DNA of 64,000 nucleotides from Candidatus Rariloculaceae bacterium (lineage in GTDB: Bacteria > Pseudomonadota > Gammaproteobacteria > Steroidobacterales > Rariloculaceae): positions 776,939 to 840,938 of the forward strand of contig OZ245000.1 in NCBI GenBank assembly GCA_965223375.1. The letters are read 5' to 3'. The notes beneath the pieces are model-generated. The model was not told the DNA's origin. It saw only the letters and a list, made by a program, of their open reading frames with translations, and searched no databases. Shown in pieces: positions 5,208-60,316 of this stretch. Each line of letters opens with the position of its first letter. The first letter of the stretch is position 1. Both the position numbers and the translations under genes were made by a program.

Positions 5208-5208
5208 G

Positions 5209-5368: not shown

Positions 5369-8342
<2,974 letters not shown>

Positions 8343-25248: not shown

Positions 25249-25254
25249 TATAAT
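25249..25254 (+). promoter_or_regulatory. candidate sigma-70 -10 box (TATAAT) upstream of the HMG-CoA synthase gene
   Basis: A perfect TATAAT sits in the locally AT-richer 308-bp divergent intergenic region, 73 nt upstream of ATG 25327. There is no convincing -35 at 17-bp spacing (TCGACA lies 20 bp upstream). Confidence 0.25.
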
Positions 25255-25326
25255 TCCGTTGCGCACAGCCGTTCGTGGGGGACGGCGATCCGAGTTCAGC
25301 ACAGTGGGACGTCCCAGGGGTTTTCT

Positions 25327-26790: not shown

Positions 26791-26893
26791 CGCCGGCGGA
26801 TGCGCGAGTCTCTGGCCCGGATGTCTCGCCGATTCGCCCCCGAGAGAGTTGCGGATGTCCGAACATCGCGGCTCTTCGGCGCGCCGACCTCGC

Positions 26894-27505
26894 TCAGACG
26901 CCGGCCGCTTCCGCGTCCAGCCTGTCGATCAGATCGTCGATCGTTCCGCCGTCGCGAAACACTCGCTGATACTCGGCCCGCTTCATCGCGAGATCGCTGA
27001 CACCGTCGGCCAGGATGTTGACGATTCGCCAGCCGCCCTCCTGGCTCTGCTGCAGCACGTAAGTCAGCGGCACGTCGTCATCGTCGGGCCGGGCAATGTA
27101 CGCCGACACCTCGACACGGCCCTCACCGATCAGCGTGGCACCGCTGATACCGAACGTGTCGGGCCCTACGCCGGCGAAACGCGACGCATAGGTGGCAACG
27201 CTCAAACGCTCGAACGCGGCGACGAACGCCGCGCGCTTCTGCTCGTCAAGCTCGCGCCACTGCCGGCGAATGGTGACCTCGGCAATGAAGGGCAGGTCGT
27301 GGGTGCGGCGCACGATCGGGAGCAGCGCATCGTAACGCTGCCCGGGCGCAGCGAGCGTAGCCGCAGCGACGAGCGCGTCGTGGAGCTCCGCGACGATACG
27401 GGCGGCCGCGTCCGTCCCGGCTTCCGCTTCCGGCGCCTCCTGGGCGTGGACGGCCCAGCAGAACAGCCAGCCTGCCAGCGCAATCGTCGACATCAGTCTT
27501 TGCAT
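26894..27505 (-). CDS. hpnM: MlaC/Ttg2D-family lipid-binding periplasmic protein, HpnM-like
   Basis: Signal peptide plus Tgt2/MlaC-like sequence (...FIAEVTIRRQWRELDEQKRAAFVAAFERLSVATYASRF...W.I.N...DGVSDLAMKRAEY). Last gene of the hopanoid operon. Confidence 0.7.
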   Translation of the reverse strand: MQRLMSTIALAGWLFCWAVHAQEAPEAEAGTDAAARIVAELHDALVAAATLAAPGQRYDALLPIVRRTHDLPFIAEVTIRRQWRELDEQKRAAFVAAFERLSVATYASRFAGVGPDTFGISGATLIGEGRVEVSAYIARPDDDDVPLTYVLQQSQEGGWRIVNILADGVSDLAMKRAEYQRVFRDGGTIDDLIDRLDAEAAGV

Positions 27506-27521
27506 CGAGGCCTCTCCGTTA

Positions 27522-28652: not shown

Positions 28653-28730
28653 TTCGGCGCCACGCTCACGTCGGGCAACGAGCCGACAGGCTGGCCTCCG
28701 GCAGGGCCCGTGACGGGAGCGGCGTGACCG

Positions 28731-29852
28731 TCAGTCCCCGGACCGGGAACGATTGCCTATCTGGTCTATCGAGACGCTGACGTCAGACGCATGCCCGCCG
28801 TGCAGCACAGGCAGCTCCGGCGCCATCTCACCATCGAGCTTCGGACCGAAGAGCATCACGCTCAGCGCTTTGAGCGGGCTTGAGATCGTGTGCTCGACGG
28901 CCGTGCCTTCGTAGCCACAGTGCGCCATGCAGTTGTCGCACTTCGGGTTGATCCCGGTACCGTAGCGACTCCACTCGGTCGTCTCCATCAGCTCCTGATA
29001 CGTCTGCGCGTAGCCCTCATCGACCAGCAGATAGCACGGCTTCTGCCAGCCAAAAATGTTGTACGTCGGATTCGCCCACGGCGTGCACTGATATGTCTGG
29101 TTGCCTGCAAGGAAATCGACGAAGAGGCTCGACTGATTGAAGCGCCACTTGCTGCCGCGCTTCCGACCGACTCTGAAAATGTCCCGGAACAACTGCTTCG
29201 AGTTCCGCCGTCCCATGAAGACATCCTGACGCGGCGCATGATCGTAGCTGTAACCGGGGGACAGCATGACGCCTTCCAGGCCGAGCGTCATCGCATAGTC
29301 GAAAAAGTCCGCAACGTCTTCCGGATCCTCGCCCGCATAAAGCGTGCAATTGGCCGTTACGCGAAATCCCCGGTCGCGGGCAGCCTCGATCGCGGACACG
29401 GCCTTGTCGAAGACCCCGCCGCGACACACCGATTCGTCGTGACGGTTGCGGTTGCCATCGAGATGTATCGACCAGGTCAGATACGGCGAGGGTTCGTACT
29501 GATCGATCTTCTGCTCGAGCAGAATCGCATTGGTGCAGAGATAGACGAACTTCTTCCGATCGACGATCCCCTGGACGATCTGCGGCATTTCCTTGTGGAT
29601 CAGCGGCTCGCCACCGGGGATCGACACGACCGGGGCGCCGCACTCGTCGACCGCACGGAGCGCATCCTCGACACTCATGCGCTTACGCAGAATGTCGTTC
29701 GAGTAGTCGATCTTGCCACAGCCGGCACAGGCAAGGTTGCACTGAAACAGCGGCTCCAGCATCAACACGAGCGGATACCGCTTATTCCCCTTGAGCTTCT
29801 GCTCGAGAATATAGCGGCCGATTCGGTAGGTCTGAACCAGTGGAATTGACAT
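28731..29852 (-). CDS. hpnH: adenosyl-hopene transferase (radical SAM) HpnH
   Basis: KRYPLVLMLEPLFQCNLACAGCGKIDY (CxxxCxxC) and ECGAPVVSIPGGEPLIHKEMPQIV..RKKFVYLCTNA closely match HpnH as I remember it. Confidence 0.9.
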   Translation of the reverse strand: MSIPLVQTYRIGRYILEQKLKGNKRYPLVLMLEPLFQCNLACAGCGKIDYSNDILRKRMSVEDALRAVDECGAPVVSIPGGEPLIHKEMPQIVQGIVDRKKFVYLCTNAILLEQKIDQYEPSPYLTWSIHLDGNRNRHDESVCRGGVFDKAVSAIEAARDRGFRVTANCTLYAGEDPEDVADFFDYAMTLGLEGVMLSPGYSYDHAPRQDVFMGRRNSKQLFRDIFRVGRKRGSKWRFNQSSLFVDFLAGNQTYQCTPWANPTYNIFGWQKPCYLLVDEGYAQTYQELMETTEWSRYGTGINPKCDNCMAHCGYEGTAVEHTISSPLKALSVMLFGPKLDGEMAPELPVLHGGHASDVSVSIDQIGNRSRSGD

Positions 29853-29888
29853 AACCGATTCCCTTGTATGCCTGCGTCGTTACGCCGC

Positions 29889-30476
29889 TCAGTCGCGACC
29901 CGCAGATTTTGCCACAGGCTGCGACACGATGGCGTCCATGAAGTGCCGCTGCAGATGCGACCACTCCATTTTGAACCACGGGGTGAATCTGTCCGGGTGG
30001 GAAGCCAGCTCGGCATCCAGCGCCGGGACATCGACGAAGCGCCAGTCGGCGATTTCGCTGACGTTGACGTCGACCGGCCCGTCGTAGCGGCCGAGATACA
30101 CCCAGCAATACTCGTGCTCGGCACCGACCGCACCGTACTGCGCGTGATACTTGAACTTGTAAAGAAACTGCAGCGGGCACTCGAAACCGAGCTCCTGCCT
30201 CAGCCGCCGCGTAACGGCCAGGTCCATCGACTCACCGCGACGCGGGTGCGAGCAGCAGGTGTTCGACCAGTAATTCGGCCACAGCGGCTTCGATTCGCTG
30301 CGCTGCTGCAGCAGAAGCTCGTCGTCCGCGTTGAAGACGAATATCGAGAACGCGCGGTGCAGGATGCCGTTGCCGGCATGGCATTCGCTCTTCAGCTCGC
30401 AACCGATCTCGCGGTCGAGCTCGTCGACGAGGATCAGCTCTTCGCTCGAGCTAGAGACGACCTCCTCACGCGCCAT
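29889..30476 (-). CDS. idi: isopentenyl-diphosphate delta-isomerase, type 1 (Nudix)
   Basis: HRAFSIFVFN, LLLQQRS..K..WP..WSNTCCSHP and E..A..RRL.EELG motifs. The start overlaps the stop of the upstream fusion gene by 11 nt. Confidence 0.9.
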   Translation of the reverse strand: MAREEVVSSSSEELILVDELDREIGCELKSECHAGNGILHRAFSIFVFNADDELLLQQRSESKPLWPNYWSNTCCSHPRRGESMDLAVTRRLRQELGFECPLQFLYKFKYHAQYGAVGAEHEYCWVYLGRYDGPVDVNVSEIADWRFVDVPALDAELASHPDRFTPWFKMEWSHLQRHFMDAIVSQPVAKSAGRD

Positions 30477-32739
30477 TGGGGTCTGCTCCGAGGTCCACTT
30501 CTACCGCCTGATAACCGGCGGCCCTGATCGCGTTGACGACCGGCGCCCGATCGCCGTCGCAGATCGCAATGATCGAACCACCGCCACCCCCGCCCGTGAG
30601 TTTCGCGCCGAGGGCACCGCTTTCCCTGGAAATGTCGACCAGCTGCTCGAGCTCCGGCGTCGACACCTGCAATGCATTGAGCATACCGTGACAGATGTTC
30701 ATCAGCTCGCCGAGCTGCTTCAGATCGTTATCCCGTATCGCCTGCACGCCACGCAACGTGAGGGCGTCGATCTGATCGAATATCCGTTCGTAGAGCTTGG
30801 GATCCTGCTTCCACGCATCGCGGACGCGGCCGACGGTTCTTGCGGTGAGCCCTTCGTAGCCGGTCATGCCGATCACTGCCGGAATCGGCTGCACAATATT
30901 GAGCGGCTCGACCAGCGGCGGATCGCCGGGCCGGTACACCAGCGGCTTCGCGTAGCACGCCAGCGTATTGTCGAGCCCGCTCGGGCTCCCGTGGGCGACT
31001 TTCTCCGACTCGAACGCCAGCGCGTTGACCTCTTCGTCGGACAAGCCGAGACGGAAGTGCTTGTCGAGCGCCCTGACGATCGCAACGGCCATTGCCGCGG
31101 AGCCCCCGAGACCCATGCTGCGAGGCACTTCCGGAAAGACCTCGATGCGCATCCCGCGACCGCTCAGACCCAGCTTGTCGAGCACTACGCCGGCCGGGCG
31201 CTCGAAAGAACGGCGCTCGTGAGGATTCGATGCGAGCTCGTACTCGACACCCCAGCGCGGAATCAACAGATGCAGGCCCCGGTCGCAGTCCTCGACCATC
31301 GCCTTGATCGCCATCGGGACCGGCGCGGCGATCGCATGCCTGCCGTAGACGACCGCGTGCTCGCCCAACAACACTACCTTGCCGTAGCCGACTCCCATTG
31401 ACTCGTCGGTACGGCGCTTCGGACCGGGTGAATCGCTCTGCTGGCCCTCGGCCTCGATCTCCCCGATGATTTCCTGCGCCTTCCAGACCTTGATCACGCC
31501 ACTTTGAACGAGGCGGTCGAGCACCTCGTCGAATATCTCGTCATTCGCACCCGCGGCAGTCACGACGCTGCGGGCATGAAGGGTCATGTGACCCTTCTGA
31601 ATCCCTTCCGTCGCGAGCGCGCGAATTGCCGCGAAATTCTGTGCCAGGCCGACGCAGGCCATGATCTCCGCGAGCTGCATCGAGGACTCGACCTCCAGCA
31701 GGCGCAGATTCAGCGCAACGGTCGGATTCGATTCGAGCGGCGCTCCGACGATACCGACCTTGATCGGGATCTCGATCTCCCCACACAGGTTACCGTCGTC
31801 GTCCGCATACCACTTCGTCAGCGACGTATAGCGGCCGCCGCGTGCCGCATACGCGTGGGCACCCGCCTCGATCGCCCGCCAGTCGTTGCCGGTGGCGATC
31901 GCAACCGGATCGATGCCGTTCATGATGCCCTTGTTGTGCGTCGCGGCGCGGTACGGATCGACGGCGGCGAACTCGGCCGCAACCACGATTCCGTCGCGGG
32001 CTTCCTCGCCGGAATAGCCGCGACCCGCGAGCTTTTCGACGGGAATCCTGCAGGCGGCCCGGGCGACGGAGCGATCCGTCAGATTGGAAAGTATCCGCAG
32101 AAAGACCGAGCCGCCGGTCAACGACTCGATCAGCGGTGCGACGCCTTCACACATGCCATTGACGAGATTGGCGCCCATCGCATCGCGTGTATCGACGAGC
32201 AGATGAACGACCAGCATACGGCTGCCACTCGACGGCTGCGGATGCACGTGCAGCTCGATGTCCCGGGCACCGCCGCCACGGGCAACCATGTTCGGATGAA
32301 AGCTGTTCGCGAGATTCAGAATCTCGCGCTTGTGAGCCGTCAGCGTCTCTTTGGCCCGTTCTATGTCCGTCAGACTGACGATCTGGATCTGGCCGATGAG
32401 CACGGGATCGGTCGCCGAGGCCGTGAAGCCGCCGGCGCTTCGCACCAGCTTGCAGGCCGATCCCAGCGCGGCGACCACCGAAGGCTCCTCGACGACCATC
32501 GGCACGATGTGCTGCCGCCCGTTGACGAGGAGGTTCATGCCGAGGCCGAGCGGCAGCCCCATGACGCCGACGACGTTCTCGATCATCTTGTCCGCCGCTG
32601 CGGGATCGAGTGTGTGCCTGCCTGTTGCAAGCGCGCGGAAGTCGTTGGCGTTCAGGAGACCCCGCTCCTGCACGGCGCGCAGCCGCTCTTCGACACTGAG
32701 CTTGTAAAACTCGGGGATTCTCAAGCGCTCGTCGGACAC
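30466..32739 (-). CDS. mvaA-mvk: fusion protein: class II HMG-CoA reductase (aa 1 to about 425) + mevalonate kinase (aa about 448-757)
   Basis: The N-terminal half is near-collinear with Pseudomonas mevalonii HMGR (IENVVG, VVEEPSVVAA, DTRDAMGAN, DPYRAATHNKGIMNGIDPVAIATGNDWRAIEAGAHAYA, ALATEGIQKGHMTLHAR). A polar linker EAEGQQSDSPGPKRRTDES follows. The C-terminal half is a GHMP kinase (GKVVLLGEHAVVYG, GLGGSAAMAVA, GAKLTGGGGGGS). No stop codon lies between the halves. Confidence 0.85.
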   Translation of the reverse strand: MSDERLRIPEFYKLSVEERLRAVQERGLLNANDFRALATGRHTLDPAAADKMIENVVGVMGLPLGLGMNLLVNGRQHIVPMVVEEPSVVAALGSACKLVRSAGGFTASATDPVLIGQIQIVSLTDIERAKETLTAHKREILNLANSFHPNMVARGGGARDIELHVHPQPSSGSRMLVVHLLVDTRDAMGANLVNGMCEGVAPLIESLTGGSVFLRILSNLTDRSVARAACRIPVEKLAGRGYSGEEARDGIVVAAEFAAVDPYRAATHNKGIMNGIDPVAIATGNDWRAIEAGAHAYAARGGRYTSLTKWYADDDGNLCGEIEIPIKVGIVGAPLESNPTVALNLRLLEVESSMQLAEIMACVGLAQNFAAIRALATEGIQKGHMTLHARSVVTAAGANDEIFDEVLDRLVQSGVIKVWKAQEIIGEIEAEGQQSDSPGPKRRTDESMGVGYGKVVLLGEHAVVYGRHAIAAPVPMAIKAMVEDCDRGLHLLIPRWGVEYELASNPHERRSFERPAGVVLDKLGLSGRGMRIEVFPEVPRSMGLGGSAAMAVAIVRALDKHFRLGLSDEEVNALAFESEKVAHGSPSGLDNTLACYAKPLVYRPGDPPLVEPLNIVQPIPAVIGMTGYEGLTARTVGRVRDAWKQDPKLYERIFDQIDALTLRGVQAIRDNDLKQLGELMNICHGMLNALQVSTPELEQLVDISRESGALGAKLTGGGGGGSIIAICDGDRAPVVNAIRAAGYQAVEVDLGADPNGA

Positions 32740-33729
32740 CTAGGCGATTTCCTCGACTTCAAGCCCTGCCTGATCCGGCACGATATCGATGACCCGGTAG
32801 CCGCGGTCGCCCACGGCCGCACGGAACGCGCTCAGCTGCCCGGGGTCCGCGCTGGCTGCGATCCCCAGGTCGCCGCCGCCGGCGCCACTCACCTTGTATG
32901 CCACGTTGAACCGCCTGGCCAAACTGCCGATCTCCCTGTGCTGACTGGTTACCAGGTCGACGCCCATCGCCTCGCCGAGACGATCCAGGCAATCGCCGTA
33001 CGCTGCCATTGCCGCCATCAGCCGGTCCCCGTCACCATCGCTGACAGCCCCCGCGCCATCGGCAGCCAGGTCAGCCATTGCTGCCAGCATCGCCCGCGCC
33101 GCCGAGGGCTGCGCGCGCTGCCATTGCCGATACCGTCCCACCAGGTCGGCCGTCGAGGCAGAGCTGCCGGCAAAAATACCCGCGAATCCTACACTGTTCG
33201 GCAGCCGGACTGAACCAAAATGGGGCACGAATTCGGCATCCAGGCGATACTCGAGCACGCCTCCGCGGCAAGAGCAGGCGACGTCGAGCCCGCTGCCAGC
33301 CCCGCCCTGAAAGCGCCTGTGCACGCTTATCAGCTCGGCGGGATCGGGCAAATCGTCCGATCCGGCCGCGCGCGACCAGACACCGGCCCAGGCCACCAGC
33401 GCCGCGGCGCTCGAACCGAGGCCGAGCTTCGTCTTGCCGAGCCAGAACGCCCCGGAATCGAGGCGGCCGCGCCACGCAGGCCACGCGATCGGCGGCGCCG
33501 TCCCGATGAACTCGTCGACGAGCGTCGCACCGGTCGGCTCACCGGCAAAAAACTCGAGCAGGGTCTCGGCGTCCGTGCGCAGCATCAGCGCGGACCGCGG
33601 ACCGGGAACCGGCTCGATCTCGGCTACGACGTGCCGCCCGACCGCCATGACCAGCGCGGCAACGCCATCGAGCACCGCGTATTCGCCAAGCAGCACGAGC
33701 TTGCCGGGCGCGCGCGCGATGATTCTCAT
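32740..33729 (-). CDS. mvaK2: phosphomevalonate kinase (GHMP family)
   Basis: From ATG 33729: MRIIARAPGKLVLLGEYAVLDG, GLGSSAAALVA and KVSGAGGGDLG. ATGA overlap with the mvaD stop, and its stop abuts the start of the fusion gene. The PMK assignment rests on context plus the GHMP motifs. Confidence 0.7.
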   Translation of the reverse strand: MRIIARAPGKLVLLGEYAVLDGVAALVMAVGRHVVAEIEPVPGPRSALMLRTDAETLLEFFAGEPTGATLVDEFIGTAPPIAWPAWRGRLDSGAFWLGKTKLGLGSSAAALVAWAGVWSRAAGSDDLPDPAELISVHRRFQGGAGSGLDVACSCRGGVLEYRLDAEFVPHFGSVRLPNSVGFAGIFAGSSASTADLVGRYRQWQRAQPSAARAMLAAMADLAADGAGAVSDGDGDRLMAAMAAYGDCLDRLGEAMGVDLVTSQHREIGSLARRFNVAYKVSGAGGGDLGIAASADPGQLSAFRAAVGDRGYRVIDIVPDQAGLEVEEIA

Positions 33730-34727
33730 TCGGCCGTTTCCGCCGAGTCCGGCAGCGTCTCTATGCCCGGGCCAAGGCCGGTCACGATCAGGTCGACGAC
33801 GCCCTCCACTGCGCGCAGTCTCTGCTCCACGGCCGGCGCCGCCTCCGGCAGGCAAACTGCCTTCACCTGCGGCCCGGCATCGATAGTGAAGAACACGGGG
33901 CTACCGGCGGCACGCAGCTCACGAACCGCGGCAATGCACGCAAGCGTCGCCGGCCTCCAGTAGATGAGCGGCGGGTCCGTCGTGATTGCCGCAGCATGCA
34001 TTTTCAGGCAACTCGACTCTGAGACCCGCGCCAGGCTGTCGAAATCGCGCGCATCGATCGCGTCGCGCGCGGCCCGCATGTCGGCGTCGTGCGAGTCAAC
34101 CCAGGCCGCATAGTAGGCCGACGACGCGGCCGACTGCGTCATGCCACGACCGGAGCTGACCGCCTTCCTGCCACCGGCCGTAATGGCGACGATGACGGTC
34201 AGCGGCCACGCATCGGCTTCCAGCAGCGGCTCGGCATACGCATCGGAGCCGTCTTCGTCTCGGCCGCGGTGCATCCAGACGTAGCCTCCGTGCAGCGACC
34301 GCGCCGCCGAGCCGGACCCCCGGCGAGCGAGAATCGTGAGCTCGCGATCGTCGAGGTCGAGCGAGAGGGCCCGCGTTGCCGCGGCCGTCAGCGCCGCGAA
34401 TCCGGACGCCGACGACGCCAGACCCGCGGCGGTCGGGAAGTTGTTCCGGCTCACGATGCGTGCCCGCAGGTCCGTGCCGGCGACTTCGCGAACGAGGTCC
34501 AGCCACTTCGAGACGCGGCCGACTTCAGCGTCGCGGGTCTCGCCGTCGAGAACGAGCGTGTCGGCCGCGTACGCCCGATCGAAAGAAACGGTCGTGTCGG
34601 TCCAGAGACGATCGAGTGTGATCGACACCGATCCAACAGCCGGTGTGTTCAGCACCGGATCGCGCTTGCCCCAATACTTGACGAGCGCGATATTGGAACG
34701 CGCTCGTACACTGGCCGTCGCCGTCAA
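33726..34727 (-). CDS. mvaD: diphosphomevalonate decarboxylase
   Basis: SNIALVKYWGKRD, SITL and TAAGLASSASGFAAL motifs. Confidence 0.9.
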   Translation of the reverse strand: MTATASVRARSNIALVKYWGKRDPVLNTPAVGSVSITLDRLWTDTTVSFDRAYAADTLVLDGETRDAEVGRVSKWLDLVREVAGTDLRARIVSRNNFPTAAGLASSASGFAALTAAATRALSLDLDDRELTILARRGSGSAARSLHGGYVWMHRGRDEDGSDAYAEPLLEADAWPLTVIVAITAGGRKAVSSGRGMTQSAASSAYYAAWVDSHDADMRAARDAIDARDFDSLARVSESSCLKMHAAAITTDPPLIYWRPATLACIAAVRELRAAGSPVFFTIDAGPQVKAVCLPEAAPAVEQRLRAVEGVVDLIVTGLGPGIETLPDSAETAE

Positions 34728-34757
34728 ATCTCAGCCCTCACTTCTGTCTCCACGCGG

Positions 34758-35747
34758 TCACCTGACGTAGCCGTTGACCGCAAACCATGACAGGGCGTCC
34801 CGAATCGCCTCCTCCGGCGGTCGCGCCTGGTACCCGAGCGCTGCCCTCGCCTTCGCACTCGAGAAGTACATGTGCTTGCGGGACATTCGCAACCCGTCGA
34901 GCGTAACCGGCGGCTCGATGCGCGTCAGCCTGCCGATCAACTCACCGACGAGCGCGACCGGATAAATCGCTGCGCGCGGCAGACGGATACGCGGAGGCCT
35001 GCGATTCGCGAGCCGGGCAACGGTACCCAGTATCTCCCGCAGACTCATGTCGTCGCCACCGAGCACATAACGCTGCCCGGGCTCGCCTCTGTCGCGTGCC
35101 AGCAGATGTCCGGCGGCGACATCGTCGACATGGACGATGTTCAGCCCGGTATCGACATAGGCCGGCATACGGCCGGAAGCCGCGTCGACGATGATCCGAC
35201 CCGTCGGCGTCGGCCTGATGTCGCGCGGTCCGATCGGCGTCGACGGGTTGACGGTAACAACCGGGAAACCGAGCGCCCTGCTGCGCTCGCGCACGACCTG
35301 CTCGGCGAGAAACTTCGAGCGTTTGTAGGGTCCGATCATGTCGGCCAGCGCCACCGGCGTTTCCTCGTCGGCCGGCGTTCTGTCGTCGTTGATTCCGAGC
35401 ACGGCGACGCTCGACGTGTAGACCATGCCTGCCAGGCCCGCCTCGGCGGCACACTCGACGACATTGATCGATCCCTCTACGTTGGTCGCATACATCGGCG
35501 CGGGATCCGGGACCCAAAGCCGATAATCGGCGGCGACATGGAAGACGTACCGGCCGCCACTAAAGGCACTGACCAGGGACTGACGGTCGCGCAGATCGCC
35601 CTCGACAATCTCGACGTCGAGACGCTCGAGATTGCGCCTGTCACTGCCGGGGCGAACGAGTGCCCGGACGAGTTCGCCTGCGCCGAGCAGTCGTCGCACG
35701 ACGGCGGCGCCGACGAAGCCGTTCGCGCCTGTGACGATTGCCGTCAT
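34758..35747 (-). CDS. hpnA: hopanoid-associated NAD-dependent sugar epimerase/dehydratase HpnA
   Basis: IVTGANGFVGAAVVRRLL Rossmann motif and YxxxK (YKRSK). Length and context match HpnA. Confidence 0.75.
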   Translation of the reverse strand: MTAIVTGANGFVGAAVVRRLLGAGELVRALVRPGSDRRNLERLDVEIVEGDLRDRQSLVSAFSGGRYVFHVAADYRLWVPDPAPMYATNVEGSINVVECAAEAGLAGMVYTSSVAVLGINDDRTPADEETPVALADMIGPYKRSKFLAEQVVRERSRALGFPVVTVNPSTPIGPRDIRPTPTGRIIVDAASGRMPAYVDTGLNIVHVDDVAAGHLLARDRGEPGQRYVLGGDDMSLREILGTVARLANRRPPRIRLPRAAIYPVALVGELIGRLTRIEPPVTLDGLRMSRKHMYFSSAKARAALGYQARPPEEAIRDALSWFAVNGYVR

Positions 35748-38350
35748 GTCCGCTTCCTTAGTGCCAGCAACGACGGCAGCAGTATCAGGGTAGCCGCAAG
35801 CGTTACGAGCATGCCTATCGTCAGAAGCTTGCCCATGCTCGCGGTGCCGACGTGACTCGAGAACGCGAGGTTACCGAAACTGGCAATCGTCGTAAGGCCG
35901 CTTGCGAGCACTGCGCGTGACGTGCTGGTCGCAAATGTGCCGCCCTCGCGCGGCTCCGTTCGGTTGCGGTGCACGATGTGGATGCCGTTGTCCACACCGA
36001 CACCGATCAGCAGCGGCAAAGCGATGATGTTTGCGAAATTGAAGGGCAGCCCGAACCAGACGGCGATTGCAGCTGTCGTAGCCGAGGCGAACAGAATCGG
36101 CAACAGCACCAGGATCGTATCGCCGATGCGCCGGAGCAGAATCAACAGGAGAATCGCGACGACGCCGAGCGCCAGACTCAGCGCCTGGCGGAATGCGCCG
36201 ACTATCGTTCGCGACGCCTCACGATAGACGACGGGCAGCCCGGTAGCGTTCGGCACGACCGCTCTGACTGCATCGACGAAACGGGACGCCGCCTCATTGT
36301 CATTGAGGTCTTCAGCAGGAACGAACTCGACCAATTCGCGCCCGTCGGGGCCGATCCACCGTTCGGCGAGCGCCGCGGGCAGATCGGACACCGTGAACGG
36401 TTCGGCGTCGAGGCCGGCAGCCAGCCGGCCGATCTGCGTGGTGAAATCGGACCGCAATGCGCGGTCGAGAGCTGCAGCGCGCGCCACTCCCCCGGCTGCG
36501 TCGGTCGCTGCGGACACGCCCAGCCAGCGCTCGATCGCTGCCGCGAGGCGCGGCGCACCGGCCACGCTTTCGCCCCGAACTGCAGTCAGCAGGTCGCGCA
36601 TCGCCCGTTCCAGCTGTGTGGCATCGAATGCCTGCGCGGTGACATTGCCGAACCCGGCGCCGAGCACGAAGCGCAAGTCGTCGAGCACGAGCAGCTTCTC
36701 TTCCTGGTCACCAGGCACCAGTGACGATGCGCCGACGACGCGGTCCACCAGCGGATCGGCGGCCAGCGCCGCGCGCCATCGGTCGACATCTGTGCGGTCT
36801 TCGGCGATCGCCAGCATGCTGAACATCGGCGCCTCGCTGCGTTCGGCCAGCTCGCTCAGCAGCCGGACCGACTCCGACTCCGGATCGCGCAGATGAATCG
36901 GGTTGCTGTCGAATTCGAGCCCCGGCAAAGCCAGTAACGAGGCGATCGACAGCGCGGCCGCCATGACGACCACGACACGTGCGGCACCGCCGGCGCGCGC
37001 CGGGTTGAAGGCGCGCACCGGCAGCCTTGCGGATGCCGCCGAGAACTCGCCGGCCGGCCTCCATGCGACGGCCAGCAGCGCGGGCAGCAGCACGAGGCTG
37101 GCCACGAGGCTGATGAACATCCCGCCACCTGAAATCAGACCGAGCTCCGAGACGCCATCGAAGTCGGTTGGCATGAATGCGAAGAAGCCGGCAGCCGTCG
37201 TGACTGCACAAATGACCAGCGATGCCCCGACCCCGTGTGCCGTCCGCGCCAGGGCTTCGACTCGCTCGATTCCCGTTGCGAGCAGCTCCTTGTGCCGGAG
37301 ACAGAAATGCAGAATGAAATCGACGCCAAGGCCGACATAAAGCACCGCGAAAGCCACTGAAATCAGATTCAGATGCCCGACGGCGAACGCTGCGAACGCG
37401 GCCGTGAATACCAGGCCGGTGAGCAGTGTAAGTATCGAGACGATCAGCAGCACGACGGATCGCAGCGTCCAAAGAAGCACGACGACGACCATGACGAGCG
37501 CGGCGATGCCGGCCGCTGCAGCCCCCCGGGTCACGCTGATCAGCTCCTCGTGCTCCATGGCCACAGTCCCGGAGAGCCTGACGGTCACCGGCGCCGCAGC
37601 AGCCTCGGAAACCTGCTCCGCCGCGTCCCGGATCGCGTCGATAGCGGCGGCGGCCGGTTGCACGCGCCCGAAGTCGAGCACCGGCCGCAGCAGCAGCAAC
37701 GGCGTTGCAGTCGAAGCGGCATCGACCTCGAACAGTGATTGCCAGCGAAGCAGCCGGGACGCGCCGTCCGCGTCTGCTTCGATCGTCAGCGCGATCTCCC
37801 CGAGCAGGCCTTCGATACCGTCGGCCACGGACAACTCGTCCGCGGTAACGGCCATGGCAGCGACGTCGAGCACGGCCGCTCCGCCGAAGCCGCGGCTGAG
37901 GCGGCCGACGAGAGGCTGAGCCGCAACGAGATCATCGCTGAGCGATTCGAGTTGTCCGAGAGAGAGATAGAGCAAGCCGTTGCGATCGAAGAACTCGCCG
38001 AATCCGGCGAGAAAGACGCTCTCGAAATGTGCGGGTTGCGCGGCGAGGGTCGCGGCGAGCGCCCGGGCGGCGTCCGTTGCGACGTCCGGGTTCGCCGCAT
38101 CGACAGCAACGATGATGTTGCGATCGCGGGCCGGAAACGCCTCCCGAAAAGCAATGAAATCCCGCCGCCACTCGAGCTCCGGGGAAATCATGTTGGCCGT
38201 GTCCGTGTTGATTCCAAGGTTGCCGGCGACGTAGCGGCCTGCTCCGCTCGCGAGCAACATCACGCCGACAATGACGATGATCGGATGGCGGCCTACCGCA
38301 CGCACGAGCGTCGCGAGCGGGTCACCGATCAGACTGCGTTCCGTGCTCAC
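35744..38350 (-). CDS. hpnN: RND/MMPL-superfamily hopanoid transporter HpnN
   Basis: 868 aa with two 6-TM bundles separated by large periplasmic loops, MMPL-like. 4-nt overlaps with the hpnG stop and the hpnA start. Confidence 0.8.
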   Translation of the reverse strand: MSTERSLIGDPLATLVRAVGRHPIIVIVGVMLLASGAGRYVAGNLGINTDTANMISPELEWRRDFIAFREAFPARDRNIIVAVDAANPDVATDAARALAATLAAQPAHFESVFLAGFGEFFDRNGLLYLSLGQLESLSDDLVAAQPLVGRLSRGFGGAAVLDVAAMAVTADELSVADGIEGLLGEIALTIEADADGASRLLRWQSLFEVDAASTATPLLLLRPVLDFGRVQPAAAAIDAIRDAAEQVSEAAAAPVTVRLSGTVAMEHEELISVTRGAAAAGIAALVMVVVVLLWTLRSVVLLIVSILTLLTGLVFTAAFAAFAVGHLNLISVAFAVLYVGLGVDFILHFCLRHKELLATGIERVEALARTAHGVGASLVICAVTTAAGFFAFMPTDFDGVSELGLISGGGMFISLVASLVLLPALLAVAWRPAGEFSAASARLPVRAFNPARAGGAARVVVVMAAALSIASLLALPGLEFDSNPIHLRDPESESVRLLSELAERSEAPMFSMLAIAEDRTDVDRWRAALAADPLVDRVVGASSLVPGDQEEKLLVLDDLRFVLGAGFGNVTAQAFDATQLERAMRDLLTAVRGESVAGAPRLAAAIERWLGVSAATDAAGGVARAAALDRALRSDFTTQIGRLAAGLDAEPFTVSDLPAALAERWIGPDGRELVEFVPAEDLNDNEAASRFVDAVRAVVPNATGLPVVYREASRTIVGAFRQALSLALGVVAILLLILLRRIGDTILVLLPILFASATTAAIAVWFGLPFNFANIIALPLLIGVGVDNGIHIVHRNRTEPREGGTFATSTSRAVLASGLTTIASFGNLAFSSHVGTASMGKLLTIGMLVTLAATLILLPSLLALRKRT

Positions 38351-39108
38351 GCGCTGATCCGCTCGGCCGGGTCGAACGCGAAACGGGAGCCGCCCAGGCA
38401 GGCGGCGATGCCCCGGAGCGCCGCGTGTGCCTTGGCCGACCGCCGCCCGAGCTCGCGAAACTCCCGAAGACTCGACGGCCGGCGAAAGAGCGCCCGCACG
38501 ACCCGCGGCACGGACACTCCGCCACGCGCCGTTACGAGCGTCGCAACATCTTGCAGCAAGGCATCGGCCGGGCCGTCGACGACGGCGCGGACGACCAGCA
38601 GCGGAATGTCCTGTTGTGCGGCCGTCGCGGCTATCGCATAAGACTCCATGTCAACGACGGCTGCCGCCGGAAACCGGGCGGCGAGTGCAGCCTTCGCCCC
38701 GGGCGTCGTTACCGGCTCACCGGCATCGACCACTTCCCCTTCAAGCAGCTCGAACCGACCGGCAAGCTCGGTCATGACCCGAGCGCGCCAGCGAGAGTCG
38801 ACTTCGATGGCCGGCCTGCCTTCCCGCAGGACCCGGCGGGGCAGGCAGACGACTCCCGTGACTGCGTCGGGCGCGATCCCGCCCGCTACACCCCAGGAGA
38901 CGAGTGCCATGGCGCCGCTCCGCACCGCCCGTGCCGCGGCGTCGCCGGCTGCGGCGGAACCCGGGCCGGATTGAATCACTTCGATTCCGCGCCCGCTAAC
39001 GGCGTGCCCCGTCAGCGTGCGGCGCTCGGTTGCGAGCGCGGCAATCGCGGCGATCGCGCCCGGCCGCCCGGCAATTCGTTGCCCCGGTTCACCGGGGTCG
39101 GGAGACAC
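38347..39108 (-). CDS. hpnG: hopanoid-associated phosphorylase/nucleosidase HpnG (PNP_UDP_1 family)
   Basis: Nucleoside phosphorylase-fold motifs (LVSWGVAGGI, VVDMESYAIA) and operon position. The GTG start at 39108 overlaps the sqs TAG by 1 nt. Confidence 0.7.
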   Translation of the reverse strand: MSPDPGEPGQRIAGRPGAIAAIAALATERRTLTGHAVSGRGIEVIQSGPGSAAAGDAAARAVRSGAMALVSWGVAGGIAPDAVTGVVCLPRRVLREGRPAIEVDSRWRARVMTELAGRFELLEGEVVDAGEPVTTPGAKAALAARFPAAAVVDMESYAIAATAAQQDIPLLVVRAVVDGPADALLQDVATLVTARGGVSVPRVVRALFRRPSSLREFRELGRRSAKAHAALRGIAACLGGSRFAFDPAERISA

Positions 39109-40205
39109 TAGGAAGCTCCGGAAACCGTCCCGAAATGATGAACGCCCGGAAACGGCGCCGGCACGGCTAACGGCAGCCCATCCGCGGCTCGATCGAAGAC
39201 GAGGCGCAACGCCCGGTTGCTCATCAGTGTCATGTTCGTCGTCATGATCGTCGCCTTGACGGTCCGCCGGGAAACCTTGACCTCGGCACCCGAGCTGAAC
39301 GCGGGATTCGCATGGATCTTACGCAAGGTGAGAACGGCAAGACCGATCGCCCACAGGCAGAACTTGCGTATCCCGGTCTCGCGCTTCGGAATCCTGCAGG
39401 TGTATTCGAGAGCGTTTCGCAGATGCGCGTGCGCAACTCCGACAAGCTCGGCAAGACCGGCAGCGAAATCCTCTGTCGTGTGCTGCGCTTCGATATCGGT
39501 CAGCTTCACGCCATGCGCAGCAAAAACGGACCGCGGCCACCAGCACGTATCGGCTTCGCGATCGTCCCAGACATCCTTGAGAATGTTCGTCATCTGCAGA
39601 CCCTGACCGAAAGAAACAGCAAGCCGCATCATTTCGTCACGCTCACTGCCGAGGTCCGGGCAATGCTGACAGAAGAGATCCGTCAGCATTTCGCCGACCA
39701 CGCCCGCTACGTAGTAACAATAAAGATCGAGCTGCGGCAGATCCGCAAGCCCCTCCAGACTCTTGTTGCGCTGGAACGCAGGCATGCCGTCGCACATGAT
39801 TCTTACGCAGCGCTCGATCGCCGACCGGGATTCGGCAGGAAAGCTGTGCAGAACGCGGATCACCTTGTCCGTGGCAGCCACAAGCTCGCGCTCGGCAGCG
39901 AGCGTGCGATTGCTCAGCAGCGGCGCCAGATCCGCCGCGAACGATTCCGGGTTGTCGACGCCTTCGACAACGGCGACGAAACGGGAGTGGAATTCGGACT
40001 TCTGGACATCGTCCAGCCCGACGTCATCCTCGATCGTATCGGCAAGGCGGCAAAGCAGATAGGCGTTCGTTACGACCTCTGACAGCGGCGAGGGCAGTAC
40101 GGGGATAGTCAGTGCGAACGTGCGCGAAACACCTGGCAGTATCCCGGCCTGATAGGCGAGGTCTGCCCGCGCGGCTGCCTCTGCGCGAGGTGATTGGGTA
40201 TTCAC
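39108..40205 (-). CDS. sqs: squalene synthase (single-enzyme, eukaryote/Methylococcus-type; squalene/phytoene synthase family)
   Basis: 365 aa with SRTFALTIPVLP...AYLLCRLADTIEDD (first Asp-rich motif) and GEMLTDL...QMTNILKDVWDD (second). It is longer than HpnC/HpnD-type proteins. Confidence 0.75.
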   Translation of the reverse strand: MNTQSPRAEAAARADLAYQAGILPGVSRTFALTIPVLPSPLSEVVTNAYLLCRLADTIEDDVGLDDVQKSEFHSRFVAVVEGVDNPESFAADLAPLLSNRTLAAERELVAATDKVIRVLHSFPAESRSAIERCVRIMCDGMPAFQRNKSLEGLADLPQLDLYCYYVAGVVGEMLTDLFCQHCPDLGSERDEMMRLAVSFGQGLQMTNILKDVWDDREADTCWWPRSVFAAHGVKLTDIEAQHTTEDFAAGLAELVGVAHAHLRNALEYTCRIPKRETGIRKFCLWAIGLAVLTLRKIHANPAFSSGAEVKVSRRTVKATIMTTNMTLMSNRALRLVFDRAADGLPLAVPAPFPGVHHFGTVSGAS

Positions 40206-40248: not shown

Positions 40249-41157
40249 ATGATAGCACGTGCCCCGAGCAGCGACTTCTCCGAACGCGTCGACACCTACC
40301 GCGAACGAGTCGAGAACCGCCTCGATCATGCGATAAATTCCGATTCGGCCGTACCGCAATCGCTGCGTGATGCGATGTCGTACTCGGTGCTCGGCGGCGG
40401 CAAGCGCGTAAGACCGTTACTGTGCTACGCATCGGCGGAACTTTGCGGCGTTGCTATCGACGCCGTAGACACGATCGCAGCAGCGGTCGAACTGGTGCAT
40501 GCGTATTCGCTGGTTCACGACGATCTGCCGGCAATGGACGACGACGATCTGCGTCGCGGCCGCCCGACGACTCACCGGCAATTCGACGAAGCTACGGCCA
40601 TTCTCGCCGGCGACGCGCTACAGGCACTCGCGTTCGAGATTCTCTGCGACGACGAGTCGCTGCAACGCACGCCCGATCGTCAGTCGAGCGTCATCGCGAC
40701 GCTTGCGCGCGCGATCGGCCCCGCCGGAATGGTCGGCGGACAGATCCTCGATATCGAAGCGGAGGGCCGCGAGCTGAACGAAGCCGGGCTCGAAGCAGTC
40801 CACCGCCGCAAGACGGGCCGTCTGATCTGGGCTGCCATTACGATGCCGAGCCTGCTCGCCGATCTGTCGGCCGATCAACGAACGAACCTGGATGTTTTTG
40901 CGACCGAGATTGGCCTCGTCTTCCAGATACGCGACGATCTGCTCGAGGTGGAGCAGGATACGACCACGCTCGGCAAGAATGCGGCAAGCGATGCCGAGAA
41001 AGACAAGTCGACTTACCCCTCGGTTCTTGGGGTCGAAGCAGCCCGGGCGCGTGCGGACAGCACGTTCTCGTCGGCGAACGCCGCACTCGAACGCGTCGGA
41101 GGCGACACGAGCGGCCTGCGCTGGGTATCGGACTTCATTCTGCGGCGCGTCTACTGA
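40249..41157 (+). CDS. ispA: farnesyl diphosphate synthase / (2E,6E)-farnesyl diphosphate synthase
   Basis: FARM motif LVHDDLPAMDDDDLRRGRPT, SARM motif FQIRDDLLE and GGKRVRPLL. Divergent from sqs across only 43 bp. Confidence 0.9.
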   Translation: MIARAPSSDFSERVDTYRERVENRLDHAINSDSAVPQSLRDAMSYSVLGGGKRVRPLLCYASAELCGVAIDAVDTIAAAVELVHAYSLVHDDLPAMDDDDLRRGRPTTHRQFDEATAILAGDALQALAFEILCDDESLQRTPDRQSSVIATLARAIGPAGMVGGQILDIEAEGRELNEAGLEAVHRRKTGRLIWAAITMPSLLADLSADQRTNLDVFATEIGLVFQIRDDLLEVEQDTTTLGKNAASDAEKDKSTYPSVLGVEAARARADSTFSSANAALERVGGDTSGLRWVSDFILRRVY

Positions 41158-57692: not shown

Positions 57693-58400
57693 ATGACAAC
57701 TGCGGTCGTCATCCCAGTCTACCGCGATCACGCCGCGCTGGCGAGTCTGCTGGCCCGCATCGACGCCTGGACGATACGGCCGGACGAAATCGTCGTCGTT
57801 GCAGCCGACCTGGACCCGACGGCCGCCGCCGCGTTCGTTGCCCGCGGCGTACGCGTGCTGCACGGGCGAGCAAACCGCGGGGCGCAGCTCGATGCCGGCG
57901 CGCGGGCGGCGAGCAGCGAAGTGCTCTGCTTCCTCCATGCCGATTCGCAGCCACATCCCGATGCACTCGGAGCGATTGCTGCGGCCGTGGCGGCGGGCGC
58001 CGAATCCGGCTGTTTCCGGTTCCGCTTCGCCGGTGAGCGCGGGCTCCCCCAGGTGCTGCTCGAGGCGCTGATCCGGTTACGCATCGGCCTCGGCGGCATG
58101 GCCTACGGCGACCAGGGCGTCTTCGCAACGCGAGACGCGTACCACGAGACGGGCGGCTTTGCGCACACGCCGCTGTTCGAGGAAGCGCCCCTCCTCCGAG
58201 AGCTCCGGCGGCGCGGCACATTCGTGGCCCTGGACCTGCCGCTGCTGGTCTCGCCACGGCGGTGGCAGCGCGACGGCTGGTGGCGGCGTACACTGCACAA
58301 TCGCTGGCTCGCAACGTGCTACATGCTCGGGGTATCGCCCGAGAAACTGGCCAGACGCTATCGTCCGCAGCCCGCGCCGACGCTGGAGACGAAAAGATGA
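57693..58400 (+). CDS. family-2 glycosyltransferase ('transferase 2, rSAM/selenodomain-associated' type)
   Basis: VVIPVYRD..., NRGAQLDAGA, LCFLHADS, AYGDQGVF, GGF...PLFEE and SPRRW match my recollection of TIGR04283. Starts at GTG 57672 or 57681 are also possible. The stop overlaps the rSAM ATG (ATGA). Confidence 0.7.
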   Translation: MTTAVVIPVYRDHAALASLLARIDAWTIRPDEIVVVAADLDPTAAAAFVARGVRVLHGRANRGAQLDAGARAASSEVLCFLHADSQPHPDALGAIAAAVAAGAESGCFRFRFAGERGLPQVLLEALIRLRIGLGGMAYGDQGVFATRDAYHETGGFAHTPLFEEAPLLRELRRRGTFVALDLPLLVSPRRWQRDGWWRRTLHNRWLATCYMLGVSPEKLARRYRPQPAPTLETKR

Positions 58401-59335
58401 ACGCGAACGCCGACACTCAGGGCGGTAATCCGACGGCGAGGTTGCTCACGCCGACCGGCGAGCCGCGTGGCTACATCGTCCCGCACGCGCTGGACGAGCT
58501 GTGGTTCCACACCGGCACAGCCTGCAACCTCGCCTGCCCGTTCTGCCTCGAAGGCTCGAAGCCCGGCGACGGACGGCTCGACCGCATCAAGCTCATCGAC
58601 GCGAAACCTTTCATCGATGAGGCGGTCGAGCTGGGCGTGCGCCAGTTTTCATTCACCGGCGGTGAGCCGTTCATCGTCAAGGATTTCGTCAATATCCTGC
58701 GCTACGCGTCGAGCTTCCGGCCCTGCCTGGTGCTCACGAATGGCACGGACCCGGTGATCAAGCGAATTCACCAGATCGAAACGCTGCGCGACCAGCCGAA
58801 TGCGATCTCGTTCCGGATCAGTATCGATTACCCGAATCGCGACCGGCACGACGCGGGGCGCGGCGCCGGCAGCTTCGATCTCGCATGGCAGGGGATGCAG
58901 CTGCTCCACGAGCTCGGGTTCCGCGTGTCGCTCGCCCGGCAGTCAGAACCCGAGGAGGACGCGGCGGCCGTCGAAGCGGAATACCGCACCGAACTGGCGC
59001 GCCGGGAGCTGCCGGCCGACACGACAATCGTCAGTTTCCCCGACTTCCTCCCGCCGGGCTCGGATCCGCGTGTTCCGTTCGTGACCGAGCACTGCATGAC
59101 GACCTATCAGACCGAGACGAGCCGTCGGGATTTCATGTGCGCGTTCTCGAAGATGGTCATCAGGATCGACGGGCGCATGCGGGTCTACGCGTGCACGCTG
59201 GTCGATGACGATCCGGGCTACGATCTCGGCGGCAGTCTGAAAGAGAGCATGACGCAGCGCATCATGCTCGACCATCACCGCTGCTACAGCTGCTTCGCCT
59301 ACGGCTCTTCGTGCAGCGAGATTCGGGGACAGTGA
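58397..59335 (+). CDS. radical SAM enzyme with Cys-rich C-terminal domain (ArsS / 'rSAM-selenodomain' relative)
   Basis: CNLACPFC (CxxxCxxC), FTGGEPF, and a C-terminal Cys cluster ...FMCAFSKMVIRIDGRMRVYACTL...HHRCYSCFAYGSSCSE that resembles the DUF3641-type tail of ArsS-like proteins. The last codons CGG GGA CAG TGA lie in the repeat element. Confidence 0.75.
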   Translation: MNANADTQGGNPTARLLTPTGEPRGYIVPHALDELWFHTGTACNLACPFCLEGSKPGDGRLDRIKLIDAKPFIDEAVELGVRQFSFTGGEPFIVKDFVNILRYASSFRPCLVLTNGTDPVIKRIHQIETLRDQPNAISFRISIDYPNRDRHDAGRGAGSFDLAWQGMQLLHELGFRVSLARQSEPEEDAAAVEAEYRTELARRELPADTTIVSFPDFLPPGSDPRVPFVTEHCMTTYQTETSRRDFMCAFSKMVIRIDGRMRVYACTLVDDDPGYDLGGSLKESMTQRIMLDHHRCYSCFAYGSSCSEIRGQ

Positions 59336-59527
59336 ATTTGGGGAGAGTTTGGGGACAGAGTTTGGGGACAGTGACCTTAATTCGGGGGAGTTTGGGGACA
59401 GTGACCCTAATTCACCGCCACCGGTAACCCAAAGCAGACGCGCGCGAATTAGGGTCACTGTCCCCAAACTCCCCCGAATTAAGGTCACTGTCCCCAAACT
59501 CTGTCCCCAAACTCTCCCCAAATTCAC
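59332..59527. repeat. palindromic extragenic repeat element, copy B (82-bp perfect arms)
   Basis: 59332-59413 is the exact reverse complement of 59446-59527 (checked base by base) around a 32-bp spacer. The arms are built from GGGGAGAGTTT / GGGGACAGAGTTT / GGGGACAGTGACCYTAATTC units. It fills the whole gap between the convergent rSAM and IMPase-family genes. Confidence 0.95.
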
Positions 59528-60316
59528 TCATAGCAGCGCCAGTGCCTGCTCGTGCAGCTCGCTGTTGGCTGCCGCGATCACGCTGCCGCCGGCCATCACG
59601 GAACCACCCTCCCAGCTCGTGACGATCCCGCCGGCGCTGCGAATGATCGGGACCAGCGGGACGATGTCGAACGAATTGAGCCCGTCCTCGACGACCAGAT
59701 CGACGAAGCCCGCGGCCAGCATCGCGTAGTTGTAACAGTCGCCGCCATAGCGGGTCAGCAGGCACGCGTCAGAGACGCGCCGGAAAGCCTCGAGACCCTC
59801 TGCGTCGAAAAACTCGGGACCGGTCGTCGTCAGAGTCGCCAGGTCGAGCTGGCGGCGGCCGCTCGATTGCAGCCGCCTGCGGCCGGACTCGTGAACCAGC
59901 CAGCTGCCGTTCGCTGAACCGATGAACACCTCACCAAGAATCGGCTGGATCAGTAACCCGATGATCGGCGTACCTGCCTCGCAAAGCCCGACCAGCGTCC
60001 CCCATAGCGGCGAACCGGACATGAAGGCGCGGGTGCCGTCAATCGGGTCTATATACCAGGTGAAGTCGCTGGCGCCCTGCTCCTCGCCGGACTCCTCAGC
60101 GACGATCCCGTGATCAGGCCAGGCCTCGCGGATCGATTCCCGCAACACATTCTCGATCGCATGATCCGCGCTGGTGACCGGGTCGAAACCCTGCGAGTCC
60201 TTGTTGTCGATCGAGAAGTTGCTCCGGAAGTAGGCTTTCGCGATGCCGCCGGCCGTGTGGGCGAGCTCGACGGCGAAGCCCTCGAGCTCGAGGTGGAGCT
60301 GGTCCCGTTCACTCAT
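59528..60316 (-). CDS. inositol monophosphatase-family phosphatase (possibly HisN-type histidinol-phosphatase)
   Basis: DPVTSADHAIE, WYIDPIDGTRAF and WGTLVGL motifs. Confidence 0.8.
   Translation of the reverse strand: MSERDQLHLELEGFAVELAHTAGGIAKAYFRSNFSIDNKDSQGFDPVTSADHAIENVLRESIREAWPDHGIVAEESGEEQGASDFTWYIDPIDGTRAFMSGSPLWGTLVGLCEAGTPIIGLLIQPILGEVFIGSANGSWLVHESGRRRLQSSGRRQLDLATLTTTGPEFFDAEGLEAFRRVSDACLLTRYGGDCYNYAMLAAGFVDLVVEDGLNSFDIVPLVPIIRSAGGIVTSWEGGSVMAGGSVIAAANSELHEQALALL

Follow-up and report, generated by a model that had tools for sequence, protein, structure and literature searches.

The palindrome and its flanking genes

We analysed a 64-kb stretch of contig OZ245000.1 from a Candidatus Rariloculaceae bacterium, referred to below as the window, in which a long palindrome fills the gap between two convergent genes, one coding for a radical-SAM (rSAM) protein and the other for a protein of the inositol-monophosphatase (IMPase) family. 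A repeat search of the window placed the arms at 59331-59413 and 59446-59528, each of 83 nt and 100% complementary, with 32 nt between them. The perfect palindrome with a 32-bp spacer that had originally been predicted is thus real, each arm being one base longer than the 82 first given, and the arms parse, exactly as had been proposed, into a chain of short related units. The full units resemble repetitive extragenic palindromic (REP) sequences and share a core, GGGGACAGTGACC, that we call the head (+ or - according to its orientation). A second element of the same kind lies near the other end of the window. The features are as follows.

58397-59335, plus strand: rSAM gene (PF04055), left neighbour, converging on the palindrome
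59322-59332, plus strand: unpaired outermost head fragment TTCGGGGACAG, outside the left arm and with no right-hand partner; encodes the R-G-Q tail of the rSAM protein
59331-59413, no strand: left arm, 83 nt, comprising GGGGACAGTGAATTT (59325-59339), GGGGAGAGTTT (59340-59350), GGGGACAGAGTTT (59351-59363), GGGGACAGTGACCTTAATTC (59364-59383, a full REP head and stem), GGGGGAGTTT (59384-59393) and GGGGACAGTGACCCTAATTC (59394-59413, a full REP head and stem)
59333-59335, plus strand: rSAM stop codon, the TGA of GGGGACAGTGA, supplied by the repeat and inside the left arm
59414-59445, no strand: loop or spacer ACCGCCACCGGTAACCCAAAGCAGACGCGCGC, identical in the related strain L099
59446-59528, no strand: right arm, exact reverse complement of the left arm
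59528-59530, minus strand: IMPase stop codon TGA, its last base shared with the right arm, so that it abuts or overlaps the stem base
59528-60316, minus strand: IMPase gene (PF00459), right neighbour, converging on the palindrome
3153-5207, plus strand: TonB-dependent receptor gene (Plug and barrel), left neighbour of the second element
5207-5372, no strand: second element of the same family, heads +--, between convergent genes
5356-5670, minus strand: cytochrome c gene (PF13442), right neighbour of the second element

It can be seen that the palindrome holds four full REP heads nested in the order ++--, along with short head fragments; the full units form an inner pair (59394-59413 with 59446-59465) and an outer pair (59364-59383 with 59476-59495). 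When the 20-mer unit was searched for in the window with up to three mismatches allowed, seven matches were recovered, each with 0 or 1 mismatch, compared with 0 in 100 shuffles. The second element has perfect 46-nt arms (5209-5254 and 5284-5329) around a 29-nt loop (5255-5283), followed by an extra unpaired half-element at 5330-5372 (GAATTAAGGTCACTGTCCCC AAATTCTA CTGTCCCCGAAC). The arms are common to both elements, while the loop at 59414-59445 resembles that of the second element in its first 10 nt alone. No further comparable hairpin was found in the window beyond these two, and a scan of the whole window against Rfam gave 0 matches at or above the gathering score.

The palindrome had been described as lacking coding capacity. 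This is correct in general, but the rSAM gene takes its final three codons and its stop from the outermost unit: 119 homologues of the rSAM protein have the ending ...CSE[IL] or ...CSEIxR and the window protein has ...CSEIRGQ*, and we therefore assign this tail and the stop codon to the repeat. In the relatives L062/L063 (L-numbers denote loci compared with the window, the genome loci totalling 510 kb), where the site is empty, the end of the rSAM gene reads GAGATCGGCCGCTAA. The cytochrome c protein beside the second element ends ...VRGQ* inside the outer unit GTTCGGGGACAGTAG, just as the rSAM protein ends ...RGQ*. Judging from the sequence, ribosomes finishing the flanking genes of both elements would have to open the stem base. 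Open reading frames drawn across the palindrome (58943-59527 minus, 59349-59729 plus and 59412-59765 minus) had been dismissed as artefacts, and a gene caller based on codon usage likewise chose none of them.

In L062/L063 the rSAM protein is 79% identical to that of the window and the gene order is the same, but the rSAM and IMPase stop codons overlap (CTAA) and leave no spacer. We conclude that the approximately 205 nt present in the window are an insertion exactly between the two stops. Loci L059-L061, from Ca. Rariloculus, have a different neighbour at the rSAM locus. An unrelated 122-nt spacer with short direct repeats such as GATAGCCAGTCAGC occupies the rSAM-IMPase junction at L064:4916-5037, and also in L065 and L066.

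The closest relative, L099, is a 207-kb contig of an independent assembly in ENA; its genes follow the same order, and 7 kb of it match the window at 96.5% identity. At the palindrome locus the rSAM tail and the 32-nt loop are both identical to those of the window; the arms, however, consist of modules TTC-D-E-B-F on the left and F'-B' on the right, and pair over 36 nt only, at 94%. Where L099 departs from the window, the breakpoints fall at the short direct repeats GGGGACAGTGA and CTGTCCCCAAACTC, the pattern that slippage or template switching would be expected to leave. It could be argued that the 83-nt symmetry is an artefact of assembly or polishing, such as a fold-back chimera or a collapsed repeat, imposed on a smaller real element, given that the fully symmetric form is seen in the window only and that L099 is asymmetric. 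We consider this very improbable: neither flanking gene is disrupted and both keep their synteny with relatives, L099 repeats the loop and inner arms unchanged, the window holds a further perfect palindrome of the family (46-nt arms) at a distance of 54 kb, perfect arms of more than 30 nt occur in other assemblies (L046, L010), and the L099 differences break where real slippage would break them. As an independent assembly has the same loop at the same locus, we conclude that the element is real, and since the arm modules differ in L099, that its perfect symmetry is strain-specific and fast-changing. The symmetric form may be ancestral, with L099 derived from it by deletions, or it may be the product of symmetrisation.

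A repeat family of sediment Gammaproteobacteria

The 19-mer GGGACAGTGACCYTAATTC was found in 58 stretches from approximately 38 assemblies, nearly all labelled Woeseiaceae, Woeseia or unclassified Gammaproteobacteria and obtained from sediments. The 10-nt head GGACAGTGAC occurs 139 times in the 510 kb of genome loci, where about one occurrence is expected (the head count and the table of gene contexts cover the genome loci and the window only). The concern raised with the original prediction, that the element might be unique to its two sites in the window, is thereby removed, as the family is present in dozens of genomes; its hosts appear to be Woeseiaceae-like marine-sediment Gammaproteobacteria. 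A metagenome scan with the window-type variant GAGTTTRGGGACAGTGACC gave more members with stacked short units (L073/L077, L076/L093, L090, L095 and L097). We rejected L067, L068, L075, L079, L081, L083 and L089, in which GAGTTTRGGGACAGTGACC occurs by chance inside a conserved coding gene (these contigs are 74-100% identical to one another), and also L070, L074 and L088, which are probably chance matches inside coding DNA; chance metagenome matches were left out of the stop-codon offsets and the search for bracketed genes. Nothing resembling the element was found in plasmid and phage collections by BLAST or in viral contigs by pattern scan. In the literature, the unit sequence led to mouse PCR primers only, and no description was found for Woeseiaceae together with REP.

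The invariant part of the family is the head GGGGACAGTGACC, and the 13-nt head is found without change in many species-level lineages. After the head comes an inner stem that is mostly CYTAATTC, in other cases ATAACTC, TTTTCTC or TTTAAGTGCCAGGC, and before it stand 6-8 A/T-rich bases (GAATTARG, GAGTTTRG or AAAARG). In most family members the unit reads GAATTARGG-GGACAGTGA-CCYTAATTC, with an 8-9-nt stem around the head, and because the A/T-rich flank is the reverse complement of the inner stem, most units are themselves small hairpins. The usual member is an inverted doublet made up of head, inner stem, a loop of 3-80 nt and the reverse complement; we counted 58 non-redundant +/- doublets with gaps of 16-119 nt, and the shortest members measure 41 nt (L003). 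No recurrent linker motif was seen among family members. A polymorphic position in the stem covaries between the arms (CC 14, TT 18, mixed 10; odds ratio 15.8, p=4e-4), and a comparison of arms in fixed register gave 0.61 within elements against 0.48 between them, a modest difference that is diluted by loop and flank positions. Two copies in L009 have identical heads and stems and loops that are about 65% alike.

Pairing in the doublets mostly involves the head and a short stem only, and the perfect 46- and 83-nt arms of the window are the extreme of the family. The nested order ++-- is also present in L030, L047 and L058, and nested or partial ++- and +-- arrangements were seen in these three loci and in L036, L021, L029, L042, L013 and L049. 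A subfamily with the same head but the long inner stem TTTAAGTGCCAGGC is found at L024:6434-6493, L047:2816-3029 and L055:3487-3555. Another hairpin repeat, beginning GGGGACGCTAACCTTCG, is present in the same metagenome-assembled genome (MAG) at L010:7130-7347, L037:6366-6440 and L038:7520-7545, sometimes nested around or beside GGGGACAGTGACC doublets.

Copies also occupy different positions in related genomes. Within the conserved tuf-secE-nusG-rplKAJL region they lie at different junctions in L009 and L011, and the same element, loop included, is found at different loci in L072 and L080/L082. At L092:992-2582 two direct repeat copies bracket a 1.4-kb Na+/H+ exchanger gene, whereas at L086:4848-4890 there is one hybrid copy and the exchanger gene is absent; this 1.5-kb difference in gene content reads as a repeat-mediated indel between strains. 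The bracketed segment of L092 had been a candidate transposase until it turned out to be the exchanger gene. In two further pairs, L073:60-330 with L077:1655-1933 and L076:2633-2828 with L093:1578-1856, contigs from different samples share an identical flank and differ in how many repeat modules they have or in the order of these; L073 and L077 differ in module number, while L076 and L093 part right after the first head, L093 running into a transposase gene described below.

RAYT genes beside the repeats

All-against-all clustering of neighbour proteins revealed no recurrent protein family beside the copies in the first 58 loci, and neither a strict regular expression for the HUH motif nor tblastn with an approximate E. 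coli RayT query found anything in the first 510 kb; the loci that carry a REP-associated tyrosine transposase (RAYT) came later. These emerged from annotation of all genes enclosed by a pair of clusters with less than 2.5 kb between them. Two independent matches were obtained, L078:1396-2046 (216 aa) and L093:1727-2362 (about 219 aa). Both proteins match PF01797 (Y1_Tnp; 43.2 bits for L078 and 37.6 bits for L093, cut-off 23), and the only NCBIfam match of either is NF047646, 'REP-associated tyrosine transposase' (80.2 and 71.1 bits, respectively, cut-off 80). They contain the HUH motifs MPNHVHLV and MPNHIHAV and the tyrosine motifs RYVELNPVRAGL and RYVEMNPVRAGL. The L078 protein, the one searched against the PDB, had as its best match E. 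coli TnpA-REP (4ER8, E=6e-7); transposase structures of the IS200/IS605 type matched far more weakly (E 0.14-0.5). Both genes lie between inverted heads and have their stop codons inside a repeat unit.

RAYT homologues were then fetched by protein alone, and three of the regions so obtained have GGACAGTGAC heads or doublets on both sides of the gene, 0-15 nt from its stop and approximately 100-120 nt upstream of its start. These are L100, from Woeseia sp. (on the contig that also contains L029), L101/L102, from a circular genome of 4.71 Mb, and L104/L105, from the MAG that includes L011, L019 and L034. A RAYT gene within 200 nt of family repeats is thus present at five independent loci (L078, L093, L100, L101/L102 and L104/L105), and the association does not stem from the way the loci were retrieved, because L100-L105 were fetched without reference to the repeat. 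A more distant RAYT, L103, is flanked instead by the sister repeat GGGGACAGTTTAC / GGGGACAGTTTACTTAATTC. This sister repeat, GGGGACAGTTTACTTAATTC, lies at L103:1170-2500 in a 4.8-Mb genome, with several tandem copies downstream of the RAYT gene, and also at L002:3600-3640 and L050:6040-6090. A second Y1_Tnp gene starts 1.4 kb past the L103 RAYT region.

The working criterion for an association between a RAYT and REPINs (paired REP elements) is a RAYT no more than 200 bp from the repeat (bioRxiv 10.1101/2022.05.22.493013), and since RAYT genes lie within this distance of the repeats in relatives, we regard the two as associated. The flanking of RAYT genes by the repeats is the decisive evidence for our interpretation, to which we assign a probability of roughly 0.78: the palindrome is a composite, nested cluster of an undescribed REP/REPIN family with the head GGGGACAGTGACC, the cognate repeat of a RAYT of the HUH/Y1 type (IS200/IS605 superfamily). 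The suggestion that a cognate transposase should be looked for was borne out in related genomes; none is encoded in the window itself.

Several observations weigh against this interpretation. No transposition event has been observed directly. The 64-kb window encodes no RAYT, transposase, integrase or HUH protein, and the source contig (4,705,282 bp) was not matched among the best 120 of more than 7,900 RAYT homologues per query, with two queries. Copy number is seemingly low: each representative genome has 1-5 stretches that contain the exact 19-mer, and the 3.49-Mb chromosome OZ244979.1 has a single one. Units of the window lineage have the outer half GAGTTTGG or GAATTTGG instead of GAATTAGG, so that the palindrome of the single unit is degenerate. 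Finally, the nested ++-- order and the perfect 83-nt arms are atypical, the commoner higher-order form being tandem arrays (PMC3337134). On copy number, heads that have diverged are about twice as common within the loci, the window has two loci in 64 kb, and MAG assemblies under-represent repeats.

Exact conservation of the 13-nt head over many species-level lineages would also suit a host sequence signal arranged in inverted pairs, for example one for DNA uptake or one bound by a DNA-binding protein. Uptake sequences of other bacteria also occur as inverted pairs behind genes. We find this explanation scarcely credible for the present family, whose density, at two loci per 64 kb in the window and 1-5 stretches with the exact 19-mer in a genome, is far too low and whose heads are nearly absent from coding DNA; moreover, half-sites 3-80 nt apart fit a hairpin better than a dimeric protein that binds duplex DNA, and the RAYT association accounts for the conservation of the head.

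The original prediction had left the choice between a miniature inverted-repeat transposable element (MITE), a REP sequence and a bacterial interspersed mosaic element (BIME). The REP assignment has stood, in the REP/REPIN form and with a RAYT in relatives; the palindrome is not a classical BIME, as its order is ++-- and not alternating. A MITE would be a deletion derivative of a DDE-type insertion sequence (IS), with termini GGGGACAGTGACC..., moved in trans by the IS transposase. The inverted ends, small size and lack of coding capacity would agree with this, and one RAYT locus adjoins a DDE_Tnp_1 gene: at L101:68-1348 this IS transposase gene stands directly upstream of the RAYT and its head. 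However, no target-site duplication was found in three independent paralogous sets (L009a/b, L015a/b and L072 vs L080/L082), members are as short as 41 nt, Y1/RAYT genes are the only transposase genes that recur beside the elements, and it is these genes, not DDE genes, that the inverted heads flank. We accordingly give a MITE origin very little credence.

A REP/REPIN family with its RAYT has its closest reference in the GI-GIII REPINs of Pseudomonas fluorescens SBW25 (Bertels & Rainey 2011, PMC3116915, PMC3337134; RAREFAN, bioRxiv 10.1101/2022.05.22.493013). As in SBW25, a hairpin is formed by two inverted REPs no more than 130 bp apart, the arms are conserved and enclose spacers of differing length and sequence, the elements are extragenic, and higher-order clusters exist; a single-gene HUH/Y1 transposase is flanked by repeats within 200 bp. 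Known systems also pair each RAYT type with a REP type (PMC3337134), and here L103 differs from the other RAYTs in the same way. The present family is unlike the SBW25 REPINs in having another head sequence, conserved over many species-level lineages; in an apparently low copy number, with 1-5 exact 19-mer stretches per representative genome (classic REPIN populations number hundreds, and the RAREFAN default requires more than 55 copies of a 21-mer); in the window copy being nested ++-- with stacked head fragments, neither a simple doublet nor a tandem array; and in the many copies that overlap stop codons.

The family shares with the REP and BIME elements of E. coli the occurrence of short extragenic palindromes behind genes, clustered in inverted orientation, and E. 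coli TnpA-REP (RayT/YafM, 4ER8) is the closest solved structure to the L078 protein, with HUH and tyrosine motifs that align. There is, however, no GTAG-type 5' tetranucleotide, no alternation of Y and Z units with defined linkers and no IHF site, and the RAYT is only distantly related to the E. coli enzyme (about 219 aa against 165 aa). IS200/IS605 elements have in common with the family a Y1 HUH transposase, subterminal hairpins and insertion without target-site duplication, and the RAYT gene between inverted heads resembles one between left and right ends; in contrast to these elements, the short repeats are far more numerous than the gene and move independently of it, and the NCBIfam match is the REP-associated equivalog.

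Placement at gene ends and proposed mechanism

To place the clusters relative to genes we used the codon-usage gene caller, which finds the genes already known in the window. Of 72 clusters, only 4 overlie called genes; all others are intergenic or at contig edges. The 58 classifiable clusters divide into 24 convergent, 26 tandem and 8 divergent, where all adjacent gene pairs divide 77/304/65; a test for enrichment at convergent gene ends had been suggested, and 24 of 58 compares with 17% of adjacent pairs (binomial p=1.4e-5). Both window elements sit at convergent junctions, of which the window has 8 among 58 junctions overall. Among 77 gene 3' ends that face an outermost head, six stop at the TGA inside the head and so encode proteins ending ...GQ*, and in a further 19 the stop ends within 10 nt of the head, in the terminal flank of the element. 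The genes that use the head TGA as stop are unrelated to one another (L014, L024, L038, L040, L053 and L058). Read from outside, the canonical unit has TAA or TAG in one frame and TGA in another, while the flank of the window variant offers an immediate stop in the TGA frame only. Copies also lie 3 nt 3' of two different tRNA-Ser genes, at L005:16-65 (tRNA 68-158, minus strand) and L021:6445-6514 (tRNA 6518-6608, minus strand).

This placement raises the possibility that the palindrome is an RNA element selected by the host, a bidirectional terminator or a stabiliser of mRNA 3' ends, and that similarity elsewhere reflects a shared functional signal. Besides the 3' ends and convergent junctions, the copies beside tRNA-Ser genes in two genomes and the covarying stem positions would fit, as would the A-runs before and T-runs after the stem in some members (L002, L029 and L053), runs of a kind also described for some Pseudomonas REPINs (PMC3337134). 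Stability is extreme too: a very stable hairpin in either transcript had been proposed, and folding of the palindrome as RNA predicts one long hairpin of -181 / -188 kcal/mol on the two strands (z about -22), with 0 of 200 shuffles as stable, and of -112 kcal/mol as single-stranded DNA. Nevertheless, the proposed terminator or stabiliser role finds no backing in the window copy, where AAACTC... comes next at the stem base on both strands, no T-run follows the stem on either, and a scan of 58900-60000 for intrinsic terminators gave 0 sites. Relatives, furthermore, have no spacer at the rSAM-IMPase junction, arm content differs between strains that are 96.5% identical, a perfect duplex of 83 bp far exceeds the needs of termination, and the RAYT association accounts for the family without any host function. 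We therefore think it unlikely that the element arose in this way; co-option of the window element may have followed as a secondary effect.

We favour instead movement by a RAYT, and by analogy with IS200/IS605 and RAYT enzymes the transposase would cut and join copies as single-stranded DNA hairpins, without target duplication. Copies would survive mainly at gene 3' ends, especially convergent ones, where harm is least because no promoter is likely to be disrupted, and insertion into the last codons would be tolerated (as ...RGQ*) because the repeat has stops in one or two of the three frames. Slippage or template switching at short direct repeats would add modules to the arms and remove others, and such turnover in the window strain would have yielded the perfectly symmetric 83-nt stem. 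Effects on the two mRNAs, namely a 3' hairpin, a target for RNase III and hindered translation termination, would be a by-product. A perfect RNA duplex of 83 bp would be an expected substrate of RNase III, and a long DNA palindrome would be an expected target of SbcCD.

A bolder version holds that the repeats land by preference on stop codons or beside them and rewrite gene ends (the ...GQ* tails), that new copies insert into the loops of existing ones, and that hairpin-templated copying actively keeps the arms identical, giving rise to long perfect palindromes that are remodelled from strain to strain. We regard this version as rather doubtful; if it were true, the RAYT system would drive variation at gene 3' ends and serve as a natural model for how palindromes become symmetric.

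Elsewhere, the window contains a cluster of mevalonate-pathway genes with hopanoid/squalene-type genes (25024-40205 and 40249-41157), in which HMG-CoA synthase, HMG-CoA reductase fused to a GHMP kinase and diphosphomevalonate decarboxylase are accompanied by a squalene/phytoene synthase, a DUF3463 radical-SAM protein, an MMPL transporter, a PNP_UDP_1 protein and a polyprenyl synthetase. A large protein encoded at 12194-14566 has multi-haem cytochrome c motifs fused to TPR repeats.

What is new here is the family and its occurrence in this lineage, the REP/REPIN-RAYT kind of system being already known. The family would add such a system to the Woeseiaceae-like sediment Gammaproteobacteria, which are abundant and little studied and in which we found none described, and the head GGGGACAGTGACC provides a handle for finding further copies. 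In practical terms, copies break MAG assemblies, create spurious open reading frames and alter the annotated C-termini of neighbouring proteins. Finally, the window and L099, with one loop in common and different arm modules, offer a clean natural comparison through which the origin and remodelling of long palindromes can be studied.

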